Of a stretch of DNA of 64,000 bases, positions 12,540 to 22,508 are shown piece by piece (position 1 is the first letter of the stretch; every line of letters begins with the position of its first letter). The stretch is from Lobosporangium transversale. Its lineage: Eukaryota. The notes under the pieces are model-generated. The model saw only the letters and a list, made by a program, of their open reading frames with translations. It did not search any database and had not been told where the DNA came from. Both the position numbers and the translations under genes were made by a program. The stretch is from positions 372,001 through 436,000 of the forward strand of contig NW_019028992.1 of NCBI RefSeq assembly GCF_002105155.1, read 5' to 3'.

Positions 12540-13893
12540 GCAGAGGAATCTTCCGTGAGTTTGTACTTTGCAGGTCTCTCCTGCCTCTCAATTTGAGCAA
12601 GACCGATTCTTGCGATGTTTTCCGCTCCTATTGCGTCACGGTCGAAGGATACCTTACAAGCACGGCAACATTTAGAGCGAGGGTACACCGTCTCTAAAAA
12701 GCTATCGCAGAGGGGTCGGGGACAGCGGGCGCTGGTGTAAAATCTGTGCGACCCTACAGCGAAGTGTCCTCGTGCTTTGACCTAAGTGTCTCAAATGGCA
12801 GTCGTTTATCGGCAAGGGCTCTATGGCTTTCCAGCTTTTCTTATTTTTTAAAAAAAGTCATGTCTCGTTATAACAGTGTGCTTGCTGGAAACTCCTTTAT
12901 TACTTTCAAAGGGCCCTAGGCCTACGACAAGCATTCCTTTTTCCCCGAGCATCTTCAACACTCGCTGCACCGCGTAGTCGAACGTAGCTCGTTGAACCTC
13001 TCGTAAGTTCCATTTTTTTAGGTGCCATCGGAACTCATAGAACTCTTGAAGCACATCCAAATTCTTTGATCCTGTCTGGGACTCCTCGTTCACCCATTGA
13101 AAGTACTCATTGTACGTATCCCTTTCAAACACAGGGATGGCGCTCTCATCTCAATCATTCCTTTTTCACGCTTCCTTTTGTTCAACAGGTGATTGAAGCG
13201 GAGGACGGGAAGGTACAGGAACCTGCTTCTCACCTTCACCGTTTGTCGCAAGTTAGGGTTGTGAGGGTCCAGCGAGGAAAACCTAAAGGCGTTAACAATA
13301 CCAGGATCGCATCTGACGATAGTTGTGGTGTTTGCGGATGGGCATCGCTCTGGTTCGTTGAATGTGAGCTCAACGTTTTCAAGCAGTTTGGAGCTCCTCT
13401 TCCAGTTTAAGTTTGCGTAGTCTTCATCTGTCAGGTCTTCACCGGCTGCCTTTGAACACGTCGTGTTGAGAAATCCCTGAGAAAGCTCCAGTTCTTGGCT
13501 GGAGTCTTCTTCATCTACATCAGACTGCCGCTGTCTCGTCGTCTGGGTTGTGTCATAGGCGAGTAGATTCAAAACAAGGCCGTTAGTAGAAATCGTTCCT
13601 TTGAGGTTGAACCGAGTTATATCTTTGTCCTGCGACTGCAGGGATACTTTGTCTCGATATCCATGAACCATGCGATCACCTCCAATCTCACAAAAGAGAG
13701 CCTGTATCAAAACTCCTTTTGTTCCCTGTACACATTCAAACATTGCAGTCTTGGAAGGATTGTCGAGAGGCAGAATACGCTCCAGTAGCTGCTTGGTATC
13801 TTCGTTCGCCCAGAGGATGTCAACTAGGGCGTGTTCAGACAGATACACATACCCCGGGTGACCAGAAGGTTGTAGAGAAGTCTGAGTATATTT
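12540..13893 (-). mobile_element. Decayed Fanzor (eukaryotic TnpB-family RuvC nuclease) gene, C-terminal ~430 codons
   Basis: In order: GTISTNG, RuvC-I IVRCDPG, VVGLGPF, RuvC-II position GSHRFYTS followed by CPRPLC, CRAC zinc-finger half, RuvC-III DRDAIGAENIARI, then ERP. Frameshifts near 13130 and 12855. Confidence 0.8.
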
Positions 13894-14325: not shown

Positions 14326-14398
14326 TGGAGAATGAGAGACTTGAACTCCCGACCTTCCGCTTTGGAGACGGACGCGCTGCCAATTGCGCCAATCCTCC
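14326..14398 (-). tRNA. tRNA-Trp (anticodon CCA), intronless
   Basis: GGAGGATTGGCGCAATTGGCAGCGCGTCCGTCTCCAAAGCGGAAGGTCGGGAGTTCAAGTCTCTCATTCTCCA folds as a cloverleaf: acceptor GGAGGAT/ATTCTCC, anticodon stem TCCGT/GCGGA with loop CTCCAAA, T-loop TTCAAGT. A TTTTT Pol III terminator follows 3 nt downstream. Confidence 0.93.
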
Positions 14399-14543
14399 TT
14401 TTTATAGGACTTGTCGTAGAGCATCTACTAGTGATCTCTGGAAACTAGTAGGTAATGATGAAAAATGAAGAATTGGGCAAGAGCCTCGTGGTTTTGGGAT
14501 ACGATAGTGATCCTAAGTAATGCTTTGAATGATTTTGAGGATG

Positions 14544-14667
14544 CTGCAAAAGGGCATCGATAATAAGAAGAGAGATCTTTAATAACTGCTAATTTTCTGA
14601 GAATTCATAATGAGAATAATGAAGATAAACTCACCTGCAAAAGGGCATCGATAATAAGAAGAGAGAT
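14544..14667 (+). repeat. Perfect 33-bp direct repeat (period 91 bp) at the 5' end of the retroelement
   Basis: CTGCAAAAGGGCATCGATAATAAGAAGAGAGAT at 14544-14576 and 14635-14667; diverged third copy begins at 17970. Confidence 0.9.
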
Positions 14668-17600
14668 GCCGTTTTTGCAGTGAAGGAAAAAGCTACTTAA
14701 ATACTATTTAAAAATGGTAGAAAATAGGATGATAGGAAATAAATAAATTGAAAGGAAATACATATTTAGGTAAATGAATAGGCGTCATTTACGACAGACT
14801 GACGTGGAAAGATCTGTCAATGATCCCAAAGATTGACAGAAAATGAACAAAATGATAATAAAAAGTTGGACGAAGTGCCAAAAGATAAATTCATAAATGG
14901 ACAAGCCCAATGCCCAGCTCATCCCAAAGGTGCTGTATAGAATTTCGGCCCAAATGTTGCCACCAAAGTTCCTACAGAAGATGACTGGTAAGTATATGTC
15001 ACTGTGTAAGCGGAAAGCACGTATGCCATCAACTACGCCAAACAGCATTATGAACCACAATAGATTGTATGCCATCAAAGACTTGGCGAACGCTCAAGCG
15101 GAAGAACAAATATCTACCCTGGCGCTTCGACTTAATGACAGCAATGTAATGGGACGGATATGTCGGACACGAGTACTGATGCTGCAGCACAGGAATAAGA
15201 TGGAAGTCTCGCCAACTTTGGAGCCACATCGTGTCAAAAAGTATCGCCACAACTTTATATCGAATGTTTGTGAAGAAATGAAGAATCGTAACATTACTTT
15301 CGACCTATCGATCGCAGCCGAATTTGGTCTCCCACACAACGCTCTCTCGACATGGAAATGGCTAAACGGAGAATTACCACACGTATGCAAGGCGCTCACC
15401 AAGCGTATGGTATACTTTGTGGATCAAATACTTACGGATGATAAGGAGGACATGATCTCATGGCACGCATTCAGGACCCGTTACGGAGGGCCTAAAGTTT
15501 CGCCATTCTGGTTCAACCAACTTCAAAACTTTTGCTTCGACAACGATTATGTGGGTAGACATGCAAGAGAATGGAACAGGAGGAAACTGGCACTCTTAGA
15601 CGTCAGTGATGATGACAGCAACAGCGACAGTAGTTATGTCAGCTCGGTAGACGGGGATACAGAAGACGAAGATCGAGAAGCGATTCGTGCACTCAACCAA
15701 TTCATAAAGGATGAGGCAGCGAACAGAACTTTGACAGTATCACCGGCTAATCAAGCTGTTGAGCCACTAATTGGAATTAAGTGGATTCTAGATCAACAGA
15801 AGGAGCGGAAAAAGAGACGAGAAGCTGTTATGAAAGAGGCGCGCAGAGCAACCAGAGAACATAATCTTAGGCGACAAAGAGCAAAGTTAGATGCCATAGT
15901 CAGAAGAGCAGAACGCCACCAGGACCGAGAGCGAAGGCATGGTGAACGCATGCGAGCCCGCGAAGAAGCGAGGAGACGCCGGACCCAGAACACAAGGAGA
16001 TATGAGGGTCTGAGCGAGCAAGCTCTGCTAAGGAGAGCAAAAGTCGACCTGGATTCCAACGAGACACCGTGCCTAAAAGTGATCCCTGAAGTCAACAGAG
16101 GCCTAGCCAGGGACACAAATGGAGTTATCATTAGCGCCAATACCGAGGAGAAAATCCAACGCCAAAGGGAACGGTACAATACCCAGCCGGGTAATGTCAT
16201 TTATACGGATGGATCTCTCAAAGATATTGGCACTGAAAGAGTAAGTATGGCATTTGGTGTGGTAGTCCAGACACAAGAGGGTGAGTTTTACACTGCGCTA
16301 TCTGGTAGAGTAGCAGGCAACGCATCCTCGACAAAGGCAGAGCTAGCTGGTTTGTTGGCAGGAATACTTATCAGCCCACGAAACAGATCTATGACAATCC
16401 GACTTGATAACAGCGCAGTTGTGACTCAATTCCGAGCATTGGTCCGAGGCAGAGTGGATAGCACGTTGCGACAACGTATTAGATCACCGTATGCAGTATG
16501 GTGGGCAGCTATACACAACGCATTTATTCAACAAGGATCGGAAGTCACGGTCGAGTGGGTCAAAGGACATGCCGGCAACAGAGGGAACGAAGAAGCGGAC
16601 GAAGCAGCAAAACATGGACATTATGGCGAGCTATGGGATATCAACATAACGGAGCATAATGACATGTACTGCCATGCAAAGTTCAACGGTGTACCAGCGG
16701 AAGATGACTTAAGGCAGATCCTTAAGTTACAGTCAACAACTCGTACACATCACACGTGGATCGCTCAGAACAGGACGCAGGAGCATGTTAAGGATTGGAC
16801 AAAAATTGATTGGCGAGCTACTATGAACATTGTTCATGATAGCAACCTACCGAAAGGACTCTTCACCAGCCCAGCGGACTGCCAAAAGCGAGCGCACAGG
16901 ATCAAGAAACTCCATGGAATGTTGCCTACACAGTCATATATGAGACACTGGAGGCCAGACCTTTATGAAGACGGCAACTGCAGAGTGTGTGGGACAGAGG
17001 ATGAAGACACATCGCACATCTGGAGATGTCCAAGGACGATGGAGACTCAGGCCGAGAAGTGGAAGGAGATAATCCAAAATGTGAATGTGATAGGGGAGAG
17101 GACATGGAGGAAAGAGTTGAAAGCAGTGCAGGAGCAAGCACAAAGGGCCAGAGAGAGGTGTAGACCCACCAAGGACAAAAGAGCCAACTTTTACTGCGGC
17201 AGAGGAGGACTACATTTGGAAAACTCTGGAGATGCATATCGATGGTGTGCGAGAAGTACGACGCCATGGTGATAGGAACGGCGATGATGAGGAAGAGAGA
17301 GAGCACACACCAGATTGGTCTGTGCAAGACATTTACCATGGACTTACGCCCAAGTCCATTGCTCAGAGTTGGAAAGTTGGCTTCAAGACAACAACAAGGA
17401 TAGCTACATATATGGCAGGGCGCTTCGTCAAGGCCATAGAGGAATTCGGTCGTACAGAAATCTGGAACAAACGGTGTAAAGTTACTGTTGAATGGGAAAA
17501 GGCTCGTGGAATCACTGCTATGAGCAAACGCGCTAGAGGACGCAACTGTGTTGGGGAGCACAGACGTAGTAGCAATGATTTCCTTGTCCCTTCCCTCAGA

Positions 17601-17937
17601 CAAAGACAGAAGCTGAATGTAAAAGAGATCTACAAGATCGCGGATGACCGAGTCCGGGACAGTTACCTTGGGAAAACCAAACTGGACGTGATGGAGCGGC
17701 TAGGTGGAATGAAGTTTTTGATGACTATGGATAGCGAATAATTTGTCGTGTTGCGCAACAGGCCACGTCGGAAAGGCGGACTTTGAGTACCAACCACGGC
17801 GGTCAGGGTTTATGAAATCATGGATACAGCGGCTCTTGTCGTTGTGCAGTAATAGCTGTATATTGACTATAGTTTCTGGAGCATTTTGTTCATAGAATGT
17901 AGAAAATAAATCCCATGACCCTGAGGGTCCTTGTTAT

Positions 17938-17968
<31 letters not shown>
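14544..17968 (+). mobile_element. Non-LTR retrotransposon with RNase H, lacking ORF1, endonuclease and RT core; poly(A)-tailed
   Basis: ORF 14897-17272 plus frameshifted tail to 17741: post-RT region (NAQLIPKVLYR), RNase H with intact acidic residues (IYTDGS, TKAEL, RLDN, WVKGHAGNRGNEEADEAAK), zinc knuckle CRVC-x8-HIWRC, IWNKRC motif. 3' end is GACCCTGAGGGTC-CTTGTTATC followed by A30 (17939-17968). No YADD-type RT motif seen. Confidence 0.88.
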
Positions 17969-17972
<4 letters not shown>

Positions 17973-18320
17973 CAAAATAGCATCAAAAGTGAAAAGAGGG
18001 ATGCTGTTTTGCAAAGAAGCCAAAGTGATTTAAATATATACTAGGATTGATAAAGGAAATAATGATAAAAGTACTGAATGATGATGGAAATAATGAAGAA
18101 GAGGATACGTAAATAGCAGATTTACGACAGGACTCTATAACATAAACTGAATATACCGAAGAATACCTTTCCACAAGCGCACGCTCCCTAAGTGCATCTT
18201 TTTATGAATTAAGTCATTCTGAACTGTGTAAACAGGGCAACCAATTTCTAGAGTCTATTTCGAACACATCCTCACGACCTCATGGGTCCCAGTTATCAAA
18301 AAAAAAAAAAAAAAAAAAAA
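17969..18320 (+). mobile_element. Short (~350 bp) non-coding, non-autonomous derivative of the same retroelement family
   Basis: Starts with a diverged copy of the 5' module (CCTGCAAAA..GCATC..AAGAG.GATGC.GTTTT), shares ATTTACGACAG about 150 bp in, and ends GACCTCATGGGTC-CCAGTTATC followed by A23 (18298-18320). Confidence 0.7.
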
Positions 18321-18850
18321 GTCATTTTGAAATCCTCACCTCTGTGGGGGGATGGAAGAACGAGGGTGAGGATGCCTACTAGGCTGTCCAAGACTTGTAC
18401 CACGGTTTGGTGCCGAGGGAACTGATACAGAGATGGAAGTCGATCTTCAGAACCACAGTATCGATCTCAAGGTACATTGTTTGCCGCTTTGTCAAGTCAA
18501 TCGAGGAACTCGGCAGGACTGATGTCTGGAACAGACGATGCAAAGTCATCGTCAACTGGGAAAGAGACAATGGCATCACCTCTGTGAGCAAACGCGCCAG
18601 GGGGGCGCAATTGTGTTGAGAAGCACAGACGTAGCAGGGATGAATTCCTTGGCTCTCACCAGGGACAACGACAAGCAGCAGACGTGAAGGCGATCAGGAC
18701 TGGTACAGATCGGCGGGTAGCGACAAGCTACCAGTAGTAGGTGGAATTAGCAGTGATGGAGCGCCTGGAAAGTTGTAAGTTTTTGATGATTGAGGGATTG
18801 TGGCAAAAGGATGACCTTCGCGCACAACAAGCCAAGTAGGGAGTAGAGCC
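18321..18850 (+). mobile_element. Older, decayed 3' fragment of a related non-LTR element
   Basis: YHGLVPRELIQRWKSIFRTT...RFVKSIEELGRTDVWNRRCKVIVNWERDNGITSVSKRARG aligns with the 17232-17741 peptide (YHGLTPKSIAQSWK...RFVKAIEEFGRTEIWNKRCKVTVEWEKARGITAMSKRARG). Stops follow and no poly(A) remains. Confidence 0.8.
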
Positions 18851-19699
18851 ATGCCACAGGTTATCAGGGGACCAATATATCATATTGAAAAATTATATTT
18901 CATCAAACACTGGTTCCTGGAGCTTGATTCCGGCACCAATGGAGAGGGAATACGAGGTCTCACAGCCACTCAAAGTTCAGATAATTCTTCTTAGTCTTGA
19001 GGGCATGTGAAATCCAAAAATCGTCTTAATACAAAAGAAAAGTAAGAAATGTCGGCGTGGAAAATATCTTCACGATGTTAATAATTATACAATACCAAAA
19101 ACAGCATTATTTTCTATCTCTTCTTGCCCATGCCTGCTTGGAGCGATATGCTCTCCAATATGTTGCTACGTTGCTGCTTGGCTGCCTTACTTCTTGTTCT
19201 ACACTGAGCAGTTTTTCCACAAATAAACGATAATCATCACGTATAAGCTTTCCCAGTAAATTAAAATAATTTGGCTTTAAATTAGACTGGTTGAAAACAC
19301 TGGCACTAAAACTAAGCTCTAGTTGCCGGAACATAGGCTGTATACATACAGTACCTTGTACTGTCGCATATAGCGCTCGGATGAAGAGTGAAGGAGTGAG
19401 TGTGAGGAGTGAAATGCTTGTAGAATAGCAAAAAGAGTAATAATTAAACACAAAGGCTCTTCAATGTCGCTCCACAACCTGCAAACATTGGTCATTAATC
19501 AAGCTCAAGCTATTTCATCTAAATTATCATGAATTAGCCTTCTCCTTGGTCTTGAACGGATTGTTTTATTTTTATTTTTGCAACCTACAAGTTAGACGAA
19601 ATTGCCTTTTTTTTTTTTTTTTTTTGCAATGTTCGAGGCGCTAGGACTATTTATTATTTTCGATTATAGGCCTTGATAGGCATGGTTGATACATCAGTG

Positions 19700-21910
19700 T
19701 TACTTTTTCTCTTCAACAACAGTGACAGGGACAGGCTCGGGTACAACGCCAGATGTGACGATGGACTCAGTCTGCACAACTGTCTCCTCAGCAGCTCGCT
19801 CCATTTTGACCTCTTCAGTGTGCGTGGCTGAAACCTCAACGACTTTGCCAGTTCTTAAGATTTTGTTGTCTGATTCCACATCAACTCCAATGGCAGCTAA
19901 GGTTATTGACATAATGTTAATAAAGTTTTAGTGTTAGAAATATGAAGCAAAGCATTACATTGTGTGATAAAGAGTGTTGAATAAGTGTAGTCTTCCTGCC
20001 ACTTACCAGCTTCCTTGGTCAAAGTCTCGATTTCTTCCTTGTCAATCGCACCCTCTGCATCCTATAGTCACAAAGACGCAAGTGAAAGAACATTAGTTAT
20101 AACAATGCAGTAACCCAAACAAACTATTAAGCACGAGGTGGTAGTAAATCTTCTCACATACCTTAGTATCATCTCCCGAGTCAGATCCAGAGGAGGATGA
20201 GGAAGAGTCGGGTTTGTAATCCTCATCTGACTCACCATCCGACTAGACCATTGTAATGTCAGGAATGTTGAGAACAAGGTCGAAAGAAGAGCATATAGAG
20301 AGATAAGTAAAATGGATTGTTCGTTTCAATTAATACTGACATTAAGTACATGCATGCTGAGATTTACAACGAAAACTTACACTGAGATCATCAAGGATAG
20401 TCTTTCCTTCGCTACCAACAGCCACACCGACGGCAGAAGCGGCTTCCTTCTTGGCCTGCTTCTCCTTCAACTTCTTCTCTTCCTTTTCCTGCTTCTCCTT
20501 CAACTTCTTCTCCTTCTTTTCCTGTTTCTCCTTTAACTTCTTTTCTTTCTTTTCTTTCTTCGCTGCCTTCTTTGCCTCGTCATCGCTGTCACTGTCGTTA
20601 CAGTCTTTCTTGATATTGGTCCTGCTGCCGCCAAAAAGACCAAGCCTCTCGAAGAAACCAGGCTTCTTTTCTTTTTGTGCCTTCTTCTTTTCTTTTTCGG
20701 CCTTTTTGGCCTTTTTGGCTTCTTCATCCAGATTCTCGTCGTCGCTGTTAGAGCTGCTAGAGTCCTCACCATCCTTGTCTTTCTTTTCCTTCTTTTCCTT
20801 CTTTCCCTTCTTTTCCTTCTTTTCCTTCTTTTCCTTCTTTTCCTTCTCTTTCTTCTCTTTCTTCTCCTTCTTCTCCTTCAATTTTTTCTCCTTCTTGTCC
20901 TCCTTATCCTTCTTTTCCTCCTTCTTCTCCTCCTCAGATTTTTCGGCCTTCTTGGCTTGGTCACCCAACTGCTCACCCAACTGCTCATCGCCGCAGCTAG
21001 CGCTGCTGGGATCCTCACCTTCTTTCTTGTCCTCCAACAATTCCTTCTCCTCTTTCTCGACATTCTTTACCTTTTTGGCTTCCTCATCCAACTGCTCATC
21101 CTCGCTGTCAGAGCTGCTAGAACTGCTAGAACTGCTAGAACTGCTTGAACTGCTTGAACTGCTAGAGCTGCTTGAGCTGCTGCAACTGCCACTGTCGGAT
21201 TCTTCGCCATCGTTCTTTTCCTTCTTCTCCTTCTTCAGCAGCTTTTTCTTCTCCTTTTCAGCTTTCTTAGCCTTCTTAGCCTCCTCATCTAACTGATCAT
21301 CATCGCTGCCAGAGCCCTCGCTGTCTTTTTTGTCTTTCTTCTCCTTCTTCTCCTTCTTCAACAGCTTTTTCCTTTCTTTCTCTTCCTTTTTAGCCTTTTT
21401 GGCCTCTTCATCCAACTGTTCATCGTCACTGCCAGAGCCGCTGCTAGAACCTTCGTCATCCTTCTTGTCCTTCTTCTCCTTTAGTTTCTTTTCTTTTTTC
21501 TCCAGCTTCTTCTTTTCCTTCTCAGCCTTCTTGGCCTTCTTGGCCTCTTCATCCAACTGTTCGTCATTGCTGCTGGAGCTACCGATGTCATTATCGTCAC
21601 CACATGAGGCCTTGATGTCCTTGGTTTCTTCCTTGGAGAGAATGATTGTTGAGGCGGAAGCACTGCCTGTAACTTGGGAAGACGAAGATGACTCGACTGT
21701 GACTGAGGTGGCGGAGAATTGACGCTCAAACGACGCGGACTGAGTGGTGGTGATAGTCTCAGTGGTGGTAGTGGAGGCTACAGATTCAGTATCGTTGATG
21801 ACGGTAGTGCTGCTGGCGGTCAAGACGGCAGGGTCCTTGACCTCAACAGTTTCGACGGTAGTTTGGACCGTAGAATGGACCTTGGGTTCTGTGCCAATAA
21901 TCTCGGACAT
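19700..21910 (-). CDS. Low-complexity, Lys/Glu/Ser-rich repeat protein of unknown function
   Basis: Exons 21910-20381, 20242-20162, 20061-20007, 19896-19700 join in frame with GT..AG boundaries. T/S/V-rich ends flank repeated DDEQLDEEAKKAKKAEKEKKK modules. Confidence 0.75.
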
Positions 21911-22508
21911 GATTTATTTGAGGTGTGAGTATGAGACAGGGGTTTGTAGAAGTGAGGAGTAAGAGTAAGGTAGATGGTATGGGCGATAAGGTCGGGTGCT
22001 AATAAAAAAGAGGAAAGAAGGGGAATGAGGAAAAGAGCGTCTTTTTTTATACTCCAGGAGTAAAATTGGGTGGCAAGACAGTTGAAGAGAGGTTGTGATT
22101 GGGGTACTATTTTATTGACTGTGAGAAATCTTGAAAGAAGAAGATGGAAAGAGTTTAAAGAAAGCACATGTGTCTGCTTGGATCAAATTGAACGGAGGTA
22201 GTCTATTGGTATAGTTACACAAACACTGGTTGGTACAATCGCTCAGGTCAGCCGAGCACGACTCCTGTCTTCACACACTTTTCTCACTCTCCGAGCATCC
22301 ACAGCTCCACAGCTGAATTGAAAGGTAAACTAAATATAGATTCATAAGATTTTCGGGAAGACGGCACGTCGTGCATTTTATCTTCCTCATACGAAGACGT
22401 ATTATACATGTATTTTAACTGTAACTGCGATATGTATTTGAACACTTGCTATGCCTGGATTTCACCATTTGTTCCCTTGTTAGTCATGTGCTACACAAAT
22501 AAAGTGAG

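Follow-up and report, generated by a model that had tools for sequence, protein, structure and literature searches.

Do the retroelement pieces that lie upstream of a tRNA-Trp gene in Lobosporangium transversale mark a fungal long interspersed nuclear element (LINE) that aims for tRNA genes? We addressed this question in a stretch of 64,000 nt (the window; contig NW_019028992.1, positions 372,001 to 436,000 of the forward strand), in which the tRNA gene is followed on its 5' side by a stack of repeats. We conclude with good confidence that the locus consists of three 5'-truncated copies of a LINE with a ribonuclease H (RNase H) domain, together with two TG...CA pieces, and that both elements are likely to be tRNA-aiming. 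An initial annotation had described a head-to-tail array of elements lacking long terminal repeats (LTRs). The array is real, was partly misread, and probably represents a new, fungal variant of tRNA-gene targeting.

Three LINE copies face the tRNA-Trp gene

The locus was resolved into the features below with the help of same-species Logan contigs from five runs in all (coded X1, X2, X3, X5 and X8), four of the eight listed runs entering each comparison. ORF2 denotes the second open reading frame (ORF) of the LINE, UTR an untranslated region and TSD a target-site duplication; P0001 is an intact relative.

14326-14398, minus strand: tRNA-Trp(CCA) gene, called by ARAGORN and by Rfam RF00005 (64.1 bits), with its 5' end at 14398
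14399-14411, no strand: spacer of 13 bp, the end of which holds the 4-bp duplications GGAC (14407-14410) and GACT (14408-14411)
14412-14796, no strand: LTR-a, a solo-LTR-like repeat of 385 bp, placed by its termini, its TSD and a sharp left edge in Logan contigs
14800-14901, no strand: probable left part of LTR-b, starting TGACGT; its status as a repeat comes from loose ends in X8 at 14828, 14898 and 14901
14917-17968, plus strand: LINE copy 1, 5'-truncated, placed by a Pfam RNase H match, tblastn to P0001 and a Logan family contig
17969-18129, no strand: right part of LTR-b, ending TACGACA and followed by GGAC, placed by alignment to the right half of LTR-a
18130-18223, no strand: original tRNA-upstream DNA, displaced by the insertions; it ends in the left copy (18211-18223) of the 13-bp TSD of copy 2
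18224-18320, plus strand: LINE copy 2, ~75 bp of 3' end and a 23-A tail, with the right TSD copy at 18319-18331
18338-18862, plus strand: LINE copy 3, a decayed piece, interrupted by stops and a frameshift, of the ORF2 C-terminus and the first part of the 3' UTR; it starts within 18338-18352

The tRNA-Trp gene was the sole ARAGORN tRNA call within the window. All three LINE pieces lie on the plus strand with their 5' ends towards the 5' end of this gene, as the initial annotation had it, and all are 5'-truncated and without the apurinic endonuclease-type (APE) and reverse transcriptase (RT) parts.

Copy 1 is the best preserved. Its open frame at 14897-17272 carries the RNase H domain (PF00075, E 2.2e-12, amino acids 434-574). 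The truncation point lies inside the post-RT region, and the RNase H domain, a CxxC-H-C motif, the C-terminus, the 3' UTR and a 30-A tail have been kept. A single 2-bp frameshift near 17149 interrupts the coding sequence, which resumes in the frame 17121-17741; both frames matched P0001 amino acids 938-1886 by tblastn, with 58% identity between P0001 and copy 1. Family Logan contigs extend 1.4-3.8 kb upstream of 14917, where the LINE match begins, with other sequence; therefore, copy 1 is simply 5'-truncated. Against the collapsed family contig it showed six differences in 1469 bp (14917-16385, ~0.4%), and copy 1 is young. Logan depth over the LINE was ~8x that of the single-copy flank, a rough figure that is not a copy number.

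Copy 2, which had been taken for a unit of ~350 bp, contains only ~75 bp of LINE 3' end. It shares with copy 1 a common 3' end before the poly(A) (85% identity over 48 nt; 18273-18320 in copy 2), and its 13-bp TSD (18211-18223 and 18319-18331) agrees in 12 of 13 letters, a match reached by one of 2000 shuffles. Poly(A) tails on copies 1 and 2, 5' truncation, the TSD of copy 2 and the lack of LTRs are traits of an APE-type LINE. Poly(A) alone is weak evidence here because the window holds 72 A/T runs of at least 12 bases, in an unusually homopolymer-rich genome.

Across 189 bp, copy 3 had 74% identity to copy 1; it differed at 24 positions over 18349-18664 (316 bp) from the closest listed family contig. 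Because copy 1 differs at 6/1469 bp and copy 3 at 24/316, age rises with distance from the tRNA, in agreement with the original description of the best-preserved copy as nearest and the most decayed as farthest. The same description named a 3' end of hairpin, GTTATC and poly(A). Copies 1 and 2 share a 3' end with tails; in copy 3 we found neither a tail nor a recognizable hairpin-poly(A) end. Three single copies fold a 5-bp stem-loop at the 3' end, and RNAalifold on nine aligned 3' ends returned no consensus base pair; thus, the hairpin is unproven as a conserved structure.

A separate LTR-like repeat adjoins the tRNA gene

The first recognizable repeat had been placed 146 bp from the tRNA and read as the 5' module of the LINE. 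Its true edge is at 14412, a sharp high-copy boundary in Logan contigs 13 bp from the tRNA-Trp gene; an exact 33-bp internal duplication (14544/14635) had been mistaken for the start, and a joint between 14543 and 14635 in X5 represents a variant without it. The module is a separate, LTR-like repeat, and LINE similarity does not begin until 14917. LTR-a starts TGTCGTA at 14412 and ends TACGACA at 14796, with GACT on either side, and an X8 record ends at 14796. Depth at 14412 was ~31x to 40x that of the single-copy flank in X1 and X3, depth again not being a copy number.

A second TACGACA ends at 18129, with GGAC next, and TGACGT begins at 14800. When the right halves of LTR-a and LTR-b were aligned, the score was 86, against a maximum of 58 among 1000 shuffles, and near-identical pieces of the LTR-b right part were present in X5 and X8. 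A nested reading of the 4-bp TSDs, GGAC and then GACT, leaves no base at the three junctions unexplained. The assignment of 14800-14901 to the left part of LTR-b is probable, and the GGAC duplication fits it. Both LTR-like copies also contain an internal inverted repeat of 14-15 bp (14635-14678 and 17970-18013), the arms of which differ between the copies with pairing retained.

The TG...CA ends, short inverted termini, 4-bp TSD and high copy number of LTR-a fit a solo LTR of a Ty3/gypsy element. As judged from sequence, the repeat is likely solo-LTR-like and derived from a second mobile element; a miniature inverted-repeat transposable element is possible instead. One of the two long flanks seen at the left edge of the repeat carried the 5' end of a tRNA-Glu gene, 14 bp away and on the opposite strand (X1, X2 and X3). 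By eye, this tRNA-Glu matched in 16 of 17 letters the tRNA-Glu beside a related LINE at locus L003 (see below).

Two other origins of the module were rejected. If it were the 5' UTR of the LINE, with an internal deletion in copy 1 like that of TRE5-A.2, it should resemble the 5' ends of relatives L001, L003, L005 and L006, to which it has no similarity; its own edges and TSDs also rule this out. Nor is it a large TSD of copy 1, as the two module copies differ strongly and copy 1 is only ~0.4% from the family contig.

Distances and order of insertion

With the LTR-like pieces subtracted, copy 1 lies 114-129 bp, copy 2 102 bp and copy 3 108-122 bp from the tRNA-Trp gene. Copy 3 would have inserted first, followed by copy 2 and then LTR-b; copy 1 would next have entered LTR-b, and LTR-a would have come last. 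On one reading of the junctions, LTR-b inserted 12 bp from the tRNA with duplication of GGAC, and LTR-a later, one base further out, with duplication of GACT. The copies do not abut at their poly(A) tails, as first proposed: the tail of copy 1 abuts the right part of LTR-b, and a gap of 17-31 bp, holding the TSD, separates the tail of copy 2 from copy 3. Instead of a single module at 146 bp, the locus would record two targeting elements, with the LINE at ~100-150 bp.

Related copies lie upstream of other tRNA genes

A metagenome scan yielded at least seven loci (L001-L007) with related elements; scans of viral contigs and genome contigs gave no match. The full-length relatives at L001, L003, L005 and L006 have a common C-rich 5' core just before ORF1. 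Three of the seven listed loci (L001, L003 and L006) were informative, having at least 150 bp of flank before the conserved core; in L002 and L007 the 5' end is missing, L004 begins within the 5' UTR, and the flank of L005 before the core amounts to only 123 bp. Of these three, two had a tRNA gene head-to-head with the full-length element: tRNA-Glu at 5-76 of L003 (minus strand, 60.4 bits) and, at the contig end, tRNA-Cys at 1-67 of L006 (minus strand, 54.5 bits). The distance from tRNA to core was 146 bp in L003 and 152 bp in L006, and that to a weakly shared upstream motif was 114 and 115 bp, respectively. We estimated the chance of at least two head-to-head matches within 250 bp among the seven listed loci as at most 4e-4 under a lenient model that assumes, rather than measures, 150-500 tRNA genes in 30-50 Mb.

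L003 also contains a stack, in which a frameshifted fragment lies 14-17 bp behind the tail of the full-length copy, followed by a short 3' UTR piece (by alignment only). Its order is that of the window, with a damaged fragment behind the tail; in both tRNA-side stacks the intact copy is nearest the tRNA. In L. transversale itself, X1 and X3 contain a record of 236 letters that connects tRNA-Trp with the LINE, from 16679 onward on the same strand. Of its 161 loose letters, 41 are LINE, which places ~122 bp between the tRNA and the LINE. Because truncation point and spacer are different ones, this record represents a separate insertion, at another gene copy or allele.

All eight copies at the four tRNA-adjacent loci face the tRNA. 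This bears on the reading that there is no active targeting, in which insertion is near-random or favors open AT-rich DNA, with selection in a gene-dense genome sparing the copies that landed where they do no harm, upstream of tRNA genes. The genome is gene-dense, with many host ORFs in the window, the L001 copies lie away from a callable tRNA, and the insertions examined are all fixed and old, as this reading would have it. Selection alone, however, gives neither a single orientation (8/8 copies, 4 loci) nor a band of ~50 bp, and successive insertions fell within ~30 bp of one another. We regard the absence of targeting as very unlikely.

The contigs themselves raise a further explanation, that collapsed repeats were misjoined to repetitive tRNA genes in the metagenome assemblies and in the window. 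In both L003 and L006 the tRNA marks the end of the contig, the terminal 71 bp of L001 repeat its own interior with 100% identity, and the window junction at 14402-14407 had no cover in four Logan runs. A gap in cover, however, proves nothing; more than 100 bp of different unique DNA separates tRNA and element at each locus, three different tRNAs agree in distance and orientation, and the window junctions carry matching target duplications. An assembly artefact is therefore extremely unlikely.

Element anatomy and lineage

In the full-length relatives, ORF1 is followed by an ORF2 with the domain order APE, RT, RNase H and a C-terminal Cys-His motif. P0001 (1887 amino acids, 28 cluster members) is intact and matched PF03372, PF14529 and PF00078 above cut-off. 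In ORF1 of L001 (599 amino acids), matches to zf-CCHC (E 0.0058) and RRM_1 (E 0.0077) fell short of the curated cut-offs. In all family members, as noted for P0002 and P0003 (the L003 and L004 type), a long, fast-changing, R/E/Q/P-rich insert lies in ORF2 between RT and RNase H. It is a candidate for a role in targeting or dimerization.

Organism names were attached to six of 17 rows of relatives, plus one more, and all named relatives are Mortierellaceae: Podila, Mortierella alpina, Entomortierella, Haplosporangium and Gamsiella. Host genes in the window have a fungal appearance, and these names point to Mortierellaceae as the host family. A tree of the RNase H region (30 rows) grouped the window copy with L001 (100/98), L006 with P0051 of M. 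alpina (99/100) and L003 with L004/P0003 (97/90). These three subclades fall within an 18-row clade (89/100) that holds all named Mortierellaceae rows used. Since tRNA-adjacent elements fall in three separate subclades, the tRNA-adjacent habit probably spans the clade.

The RT of P0001 scored 72 bits against human L1 ORF2p and 56 against R2; the L1-like protein P0004 scored 171 against human L1. A FastTree phylogeny of 93 RT rows, without named reference clades, placed the family apart from the P0004 group. Among 50%-identity representatives, 168 RT relatives matched at E 1e-30 or better, many of them with RNase H. None of the ten distant RT relatives looked up had an organism name, and matches in the ESM Atlas were to generic RT clusters only.

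Weighing tRNA targeting

Several observations weigh against the conclusion that both elements aim at tRNA genes. Those that concern the LTR-like repeat matter also for the LINE, as the reconstructed distances in the window depend on the probable assignment of 14800-14901 to the left part of LTR-b. The left halves of LTR-a and LTR-b were not significantly similar (109 of 1000 shuffles reached the score), no Logan contig joint connected 14901 with 17969, and in the X5 contig that matches the right part of LTR-b, the 1223 preceding letters were not reported as matching 14800-14901. Only one of the two long LTR flanks seen was tRNA-like. We saw neither gag-pol nor any other internal coding region with the LTR-like repeat, and the viral contigs gave no match to it.

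For the LINE, the sample is small: apart from the discovery locus, it comprises three loci. Copy 1, the full-length L003 copy and the L001 upstream copy yielded no TSD, and the true 5' boundary of full-length elements is consequently uncertain by ~35 bp. The second tRNA-Trp record was detectable only because the query stretch held both tRNA and LINE, distance and strand being free, and X1 and X3, in which it was found, may be one strain. L001, the closest relative of the window copy, is a counterexample. No tRNA was callable in the 930 bp before its full-length copy, which starts ~20 bp past the poly(A) tail of a truncated one; the intact copy is thus not nearest the 5' end of the contig.

ARAGORN at relaxed settings gave noise only. 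L001 showed further features of its own. Within positions 1-200, two decayed tRNA-like stretches are arranged tail to tail and bear B-box-like motifs; uncalled by default ARAGORN or Rfam, they are possibly relic targets or a short interspersed nuclear element (SINE). At 912-930, past the upstream poly(A) and ahead of the 5' core, 19 bp repeat part of the element's 3' UTR (8686-8704) exactly and in inverted orientation; the RT may have switched template onto its nascent cDNA, or the assembly may be at fault. A putative TG...CA element at 208-647 with a TTGA duplication was rejected, being without inverted termini and at chance level.

The arrangement at L001 suggests that the LINE may instead seek tails, inserting in or next to poly(A) tracts and older tails, with founders landing by chance. 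The Candida element Zorro3 does target poly(A), according to the available part of PMC7175516, fragments lie close behind tails in L003 as well as in L001, and the window has its 72 A/T runs. Yet there is no poly(A) tract before the tRNA-proximal copies of L003 and L006 or before window copy 2, and the TSD of copy 2 is mixed sequence. Tail-seeking also predicts that the youngest copy is farthest from the founder, whereas in the window and in L003 it is the tRNA-proximal copy that is intact. Nor does it account for founders 114-152 bp away from tRNA genes across three lineages; on the 5' side, L006 and the second tRNA-Trp record already have a solitary appearance, at a similar distance from the tRNA. 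L001 keeps this explanation alive, and we consider it highly improbable. None of the three alternatives accounts for orientation, distance band and age order together.

The proposal of repeated, orientation-fixed insertion at a tRNA-defined site is supported by L003, L006 and the second tRNA-Trp record, but not by L001, and the anatomy on which it was based had been misread. On our best reading, LINE targeting is orientation-fixed and anchored to RNA polymerase III (Pol III), at a site shared with a Ty3-like element. The LINE would insert by target-primed reverse transcription. By analogy with TRE5-A, components of the Pol III machinery that occupy the tRNA gene (TFIIIC/TFIIIB) may tether its RNA-protein particle, which would then nick the DNA ~100-150 bp away on the upstream side, outside the TFIIIB footprint and probably in the first upstream nucleosome. 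Every new copy would land at a constant distance and displace older copies outward. The LTR-like element would enter at the Pol III start site, 12-14 bp from the tRNA gene on its upstream side, and duplicate 4 bp of target.

If this is true, a fungal LINE clade that shares the fixed orientation of the dictyostelid elements at another distance implies that the strategy is older, or more often reinvented, than thought, and two unrelated retroelement classes divide the space before one tRNA gene. Intact ORFs of the P0001 type in culturable fungi would provide a system for studying particle tethering to Pol III genes and the role of the nucleosome in nicking. Position-specific LINE integrators that use safe harbors are also of interest as gene-insertion tools.

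Two neighboring features complete the locus. A broken TnpB/Fanzor-like remnant at 12467-13893 (minus strand) begins ~430 bp downstream of the 3' end of the tRNA-Trp gene; its assignment is based on Cas12f1-like_TNB (E 4.3e-6 over 12467-12781). A 523-amino-acid ORF of K/E/S low-complexity repeats at 20342-21913 (minus strand) adjoins the array.

Comparison with known systems

The closest systems for the LTR-like repeat are the Ty3/gypsy elements Ty3, Tca8 beta, Tyl3/Tyl6 and DGLT-A; here, the host lies outside Dikarya. Ty3 and DGLT-A insert at the Pol III start site, as proposed here for the repeat. The target duplication of Ty3 is 5 bp, unlike the 4 bp seen here. For the LINE distance of 100-150 bp, the closest model is Ty1, a Ty1/copia element of S. 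cerevisiae that inserts well upstream of tRNA genes, into nucleosomes, as described in the available portion of PMC5911963. Ty1 differs in being an LTR element with an integrase, in its target window of up to ~1 kb, and in that no reverse transcription takes place at the target.

In our literature search, which did not extend to Repbase Reports or subscription journals, no non-LTR element of a fungus came up as tRNA-targeting, in keeping with the initial annotation, which knew of no described example. A table of Pol III-targeting retrotransposons in a 2018 review gives only dictyostelid non-LTR cases, as far as the accessible text of PMC5911963 goes, and for fungal non-LTR elements, the accessible text of PMC7175516 gives only poly(A) and subtelomeres as targets.

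The closest known match, by description only, is the pair NLTR-A of Dictyostelium purpureum and NLTR-B of Polysphondylium pallidum. Like the LINE described here, they lie upstream of tRNA genes and carry RNase H downstream of RT; in the part of PMC5006619 that was available, they fit no known RNase H-bearing clade. Their distances are 2-6 bp (16 copies) or 39-64 bp (3 copies), compared with ~100-150 bp here (PMC5006619, same part), and their hosts are amoebae rather than a fungus. It is possible, though rather unlikely, that the LINE lineage is the fungal sister of these unplaced elements, such that tRNA targeting is an old trait of amoebae and fungi that Mortierellaceae retuned to the first upstream nucleosome, in a two-tier arrangement with a Ty3-like element at the Pol III start site.

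The dictyostelid elements TRE5-A/B/C, of the L1 group, likewise have two ORFs with APE and RT, and they insert in strict 5'-to-5' orientation, forming tandems when a tRNA gene is reused (PMC5391098, in the text available); the window, L003, L006 and the second tRNA-Trp record show the same, and L001 does not. In the same text, TRE5-A requires the B box, and its ORF1 protein contacts TATA-binding protein (TBP). TRE5 ORF2 is there described as APE-RT-zinc finger without RNase H, whereas RNase H is present here. TRE5 distances are ~50 bp, with 31-98 bp across families (available part of PMC5006619, Table 1), as against 102-152 bp. Moreover, the A-module of TRE5-A is part of the element, whereas the 5' module here is not LINE sequence. 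The Mortierellaceae LINE thus works like TRE5 and yet is not TRE5, from which it differs in distance and in RNase H.

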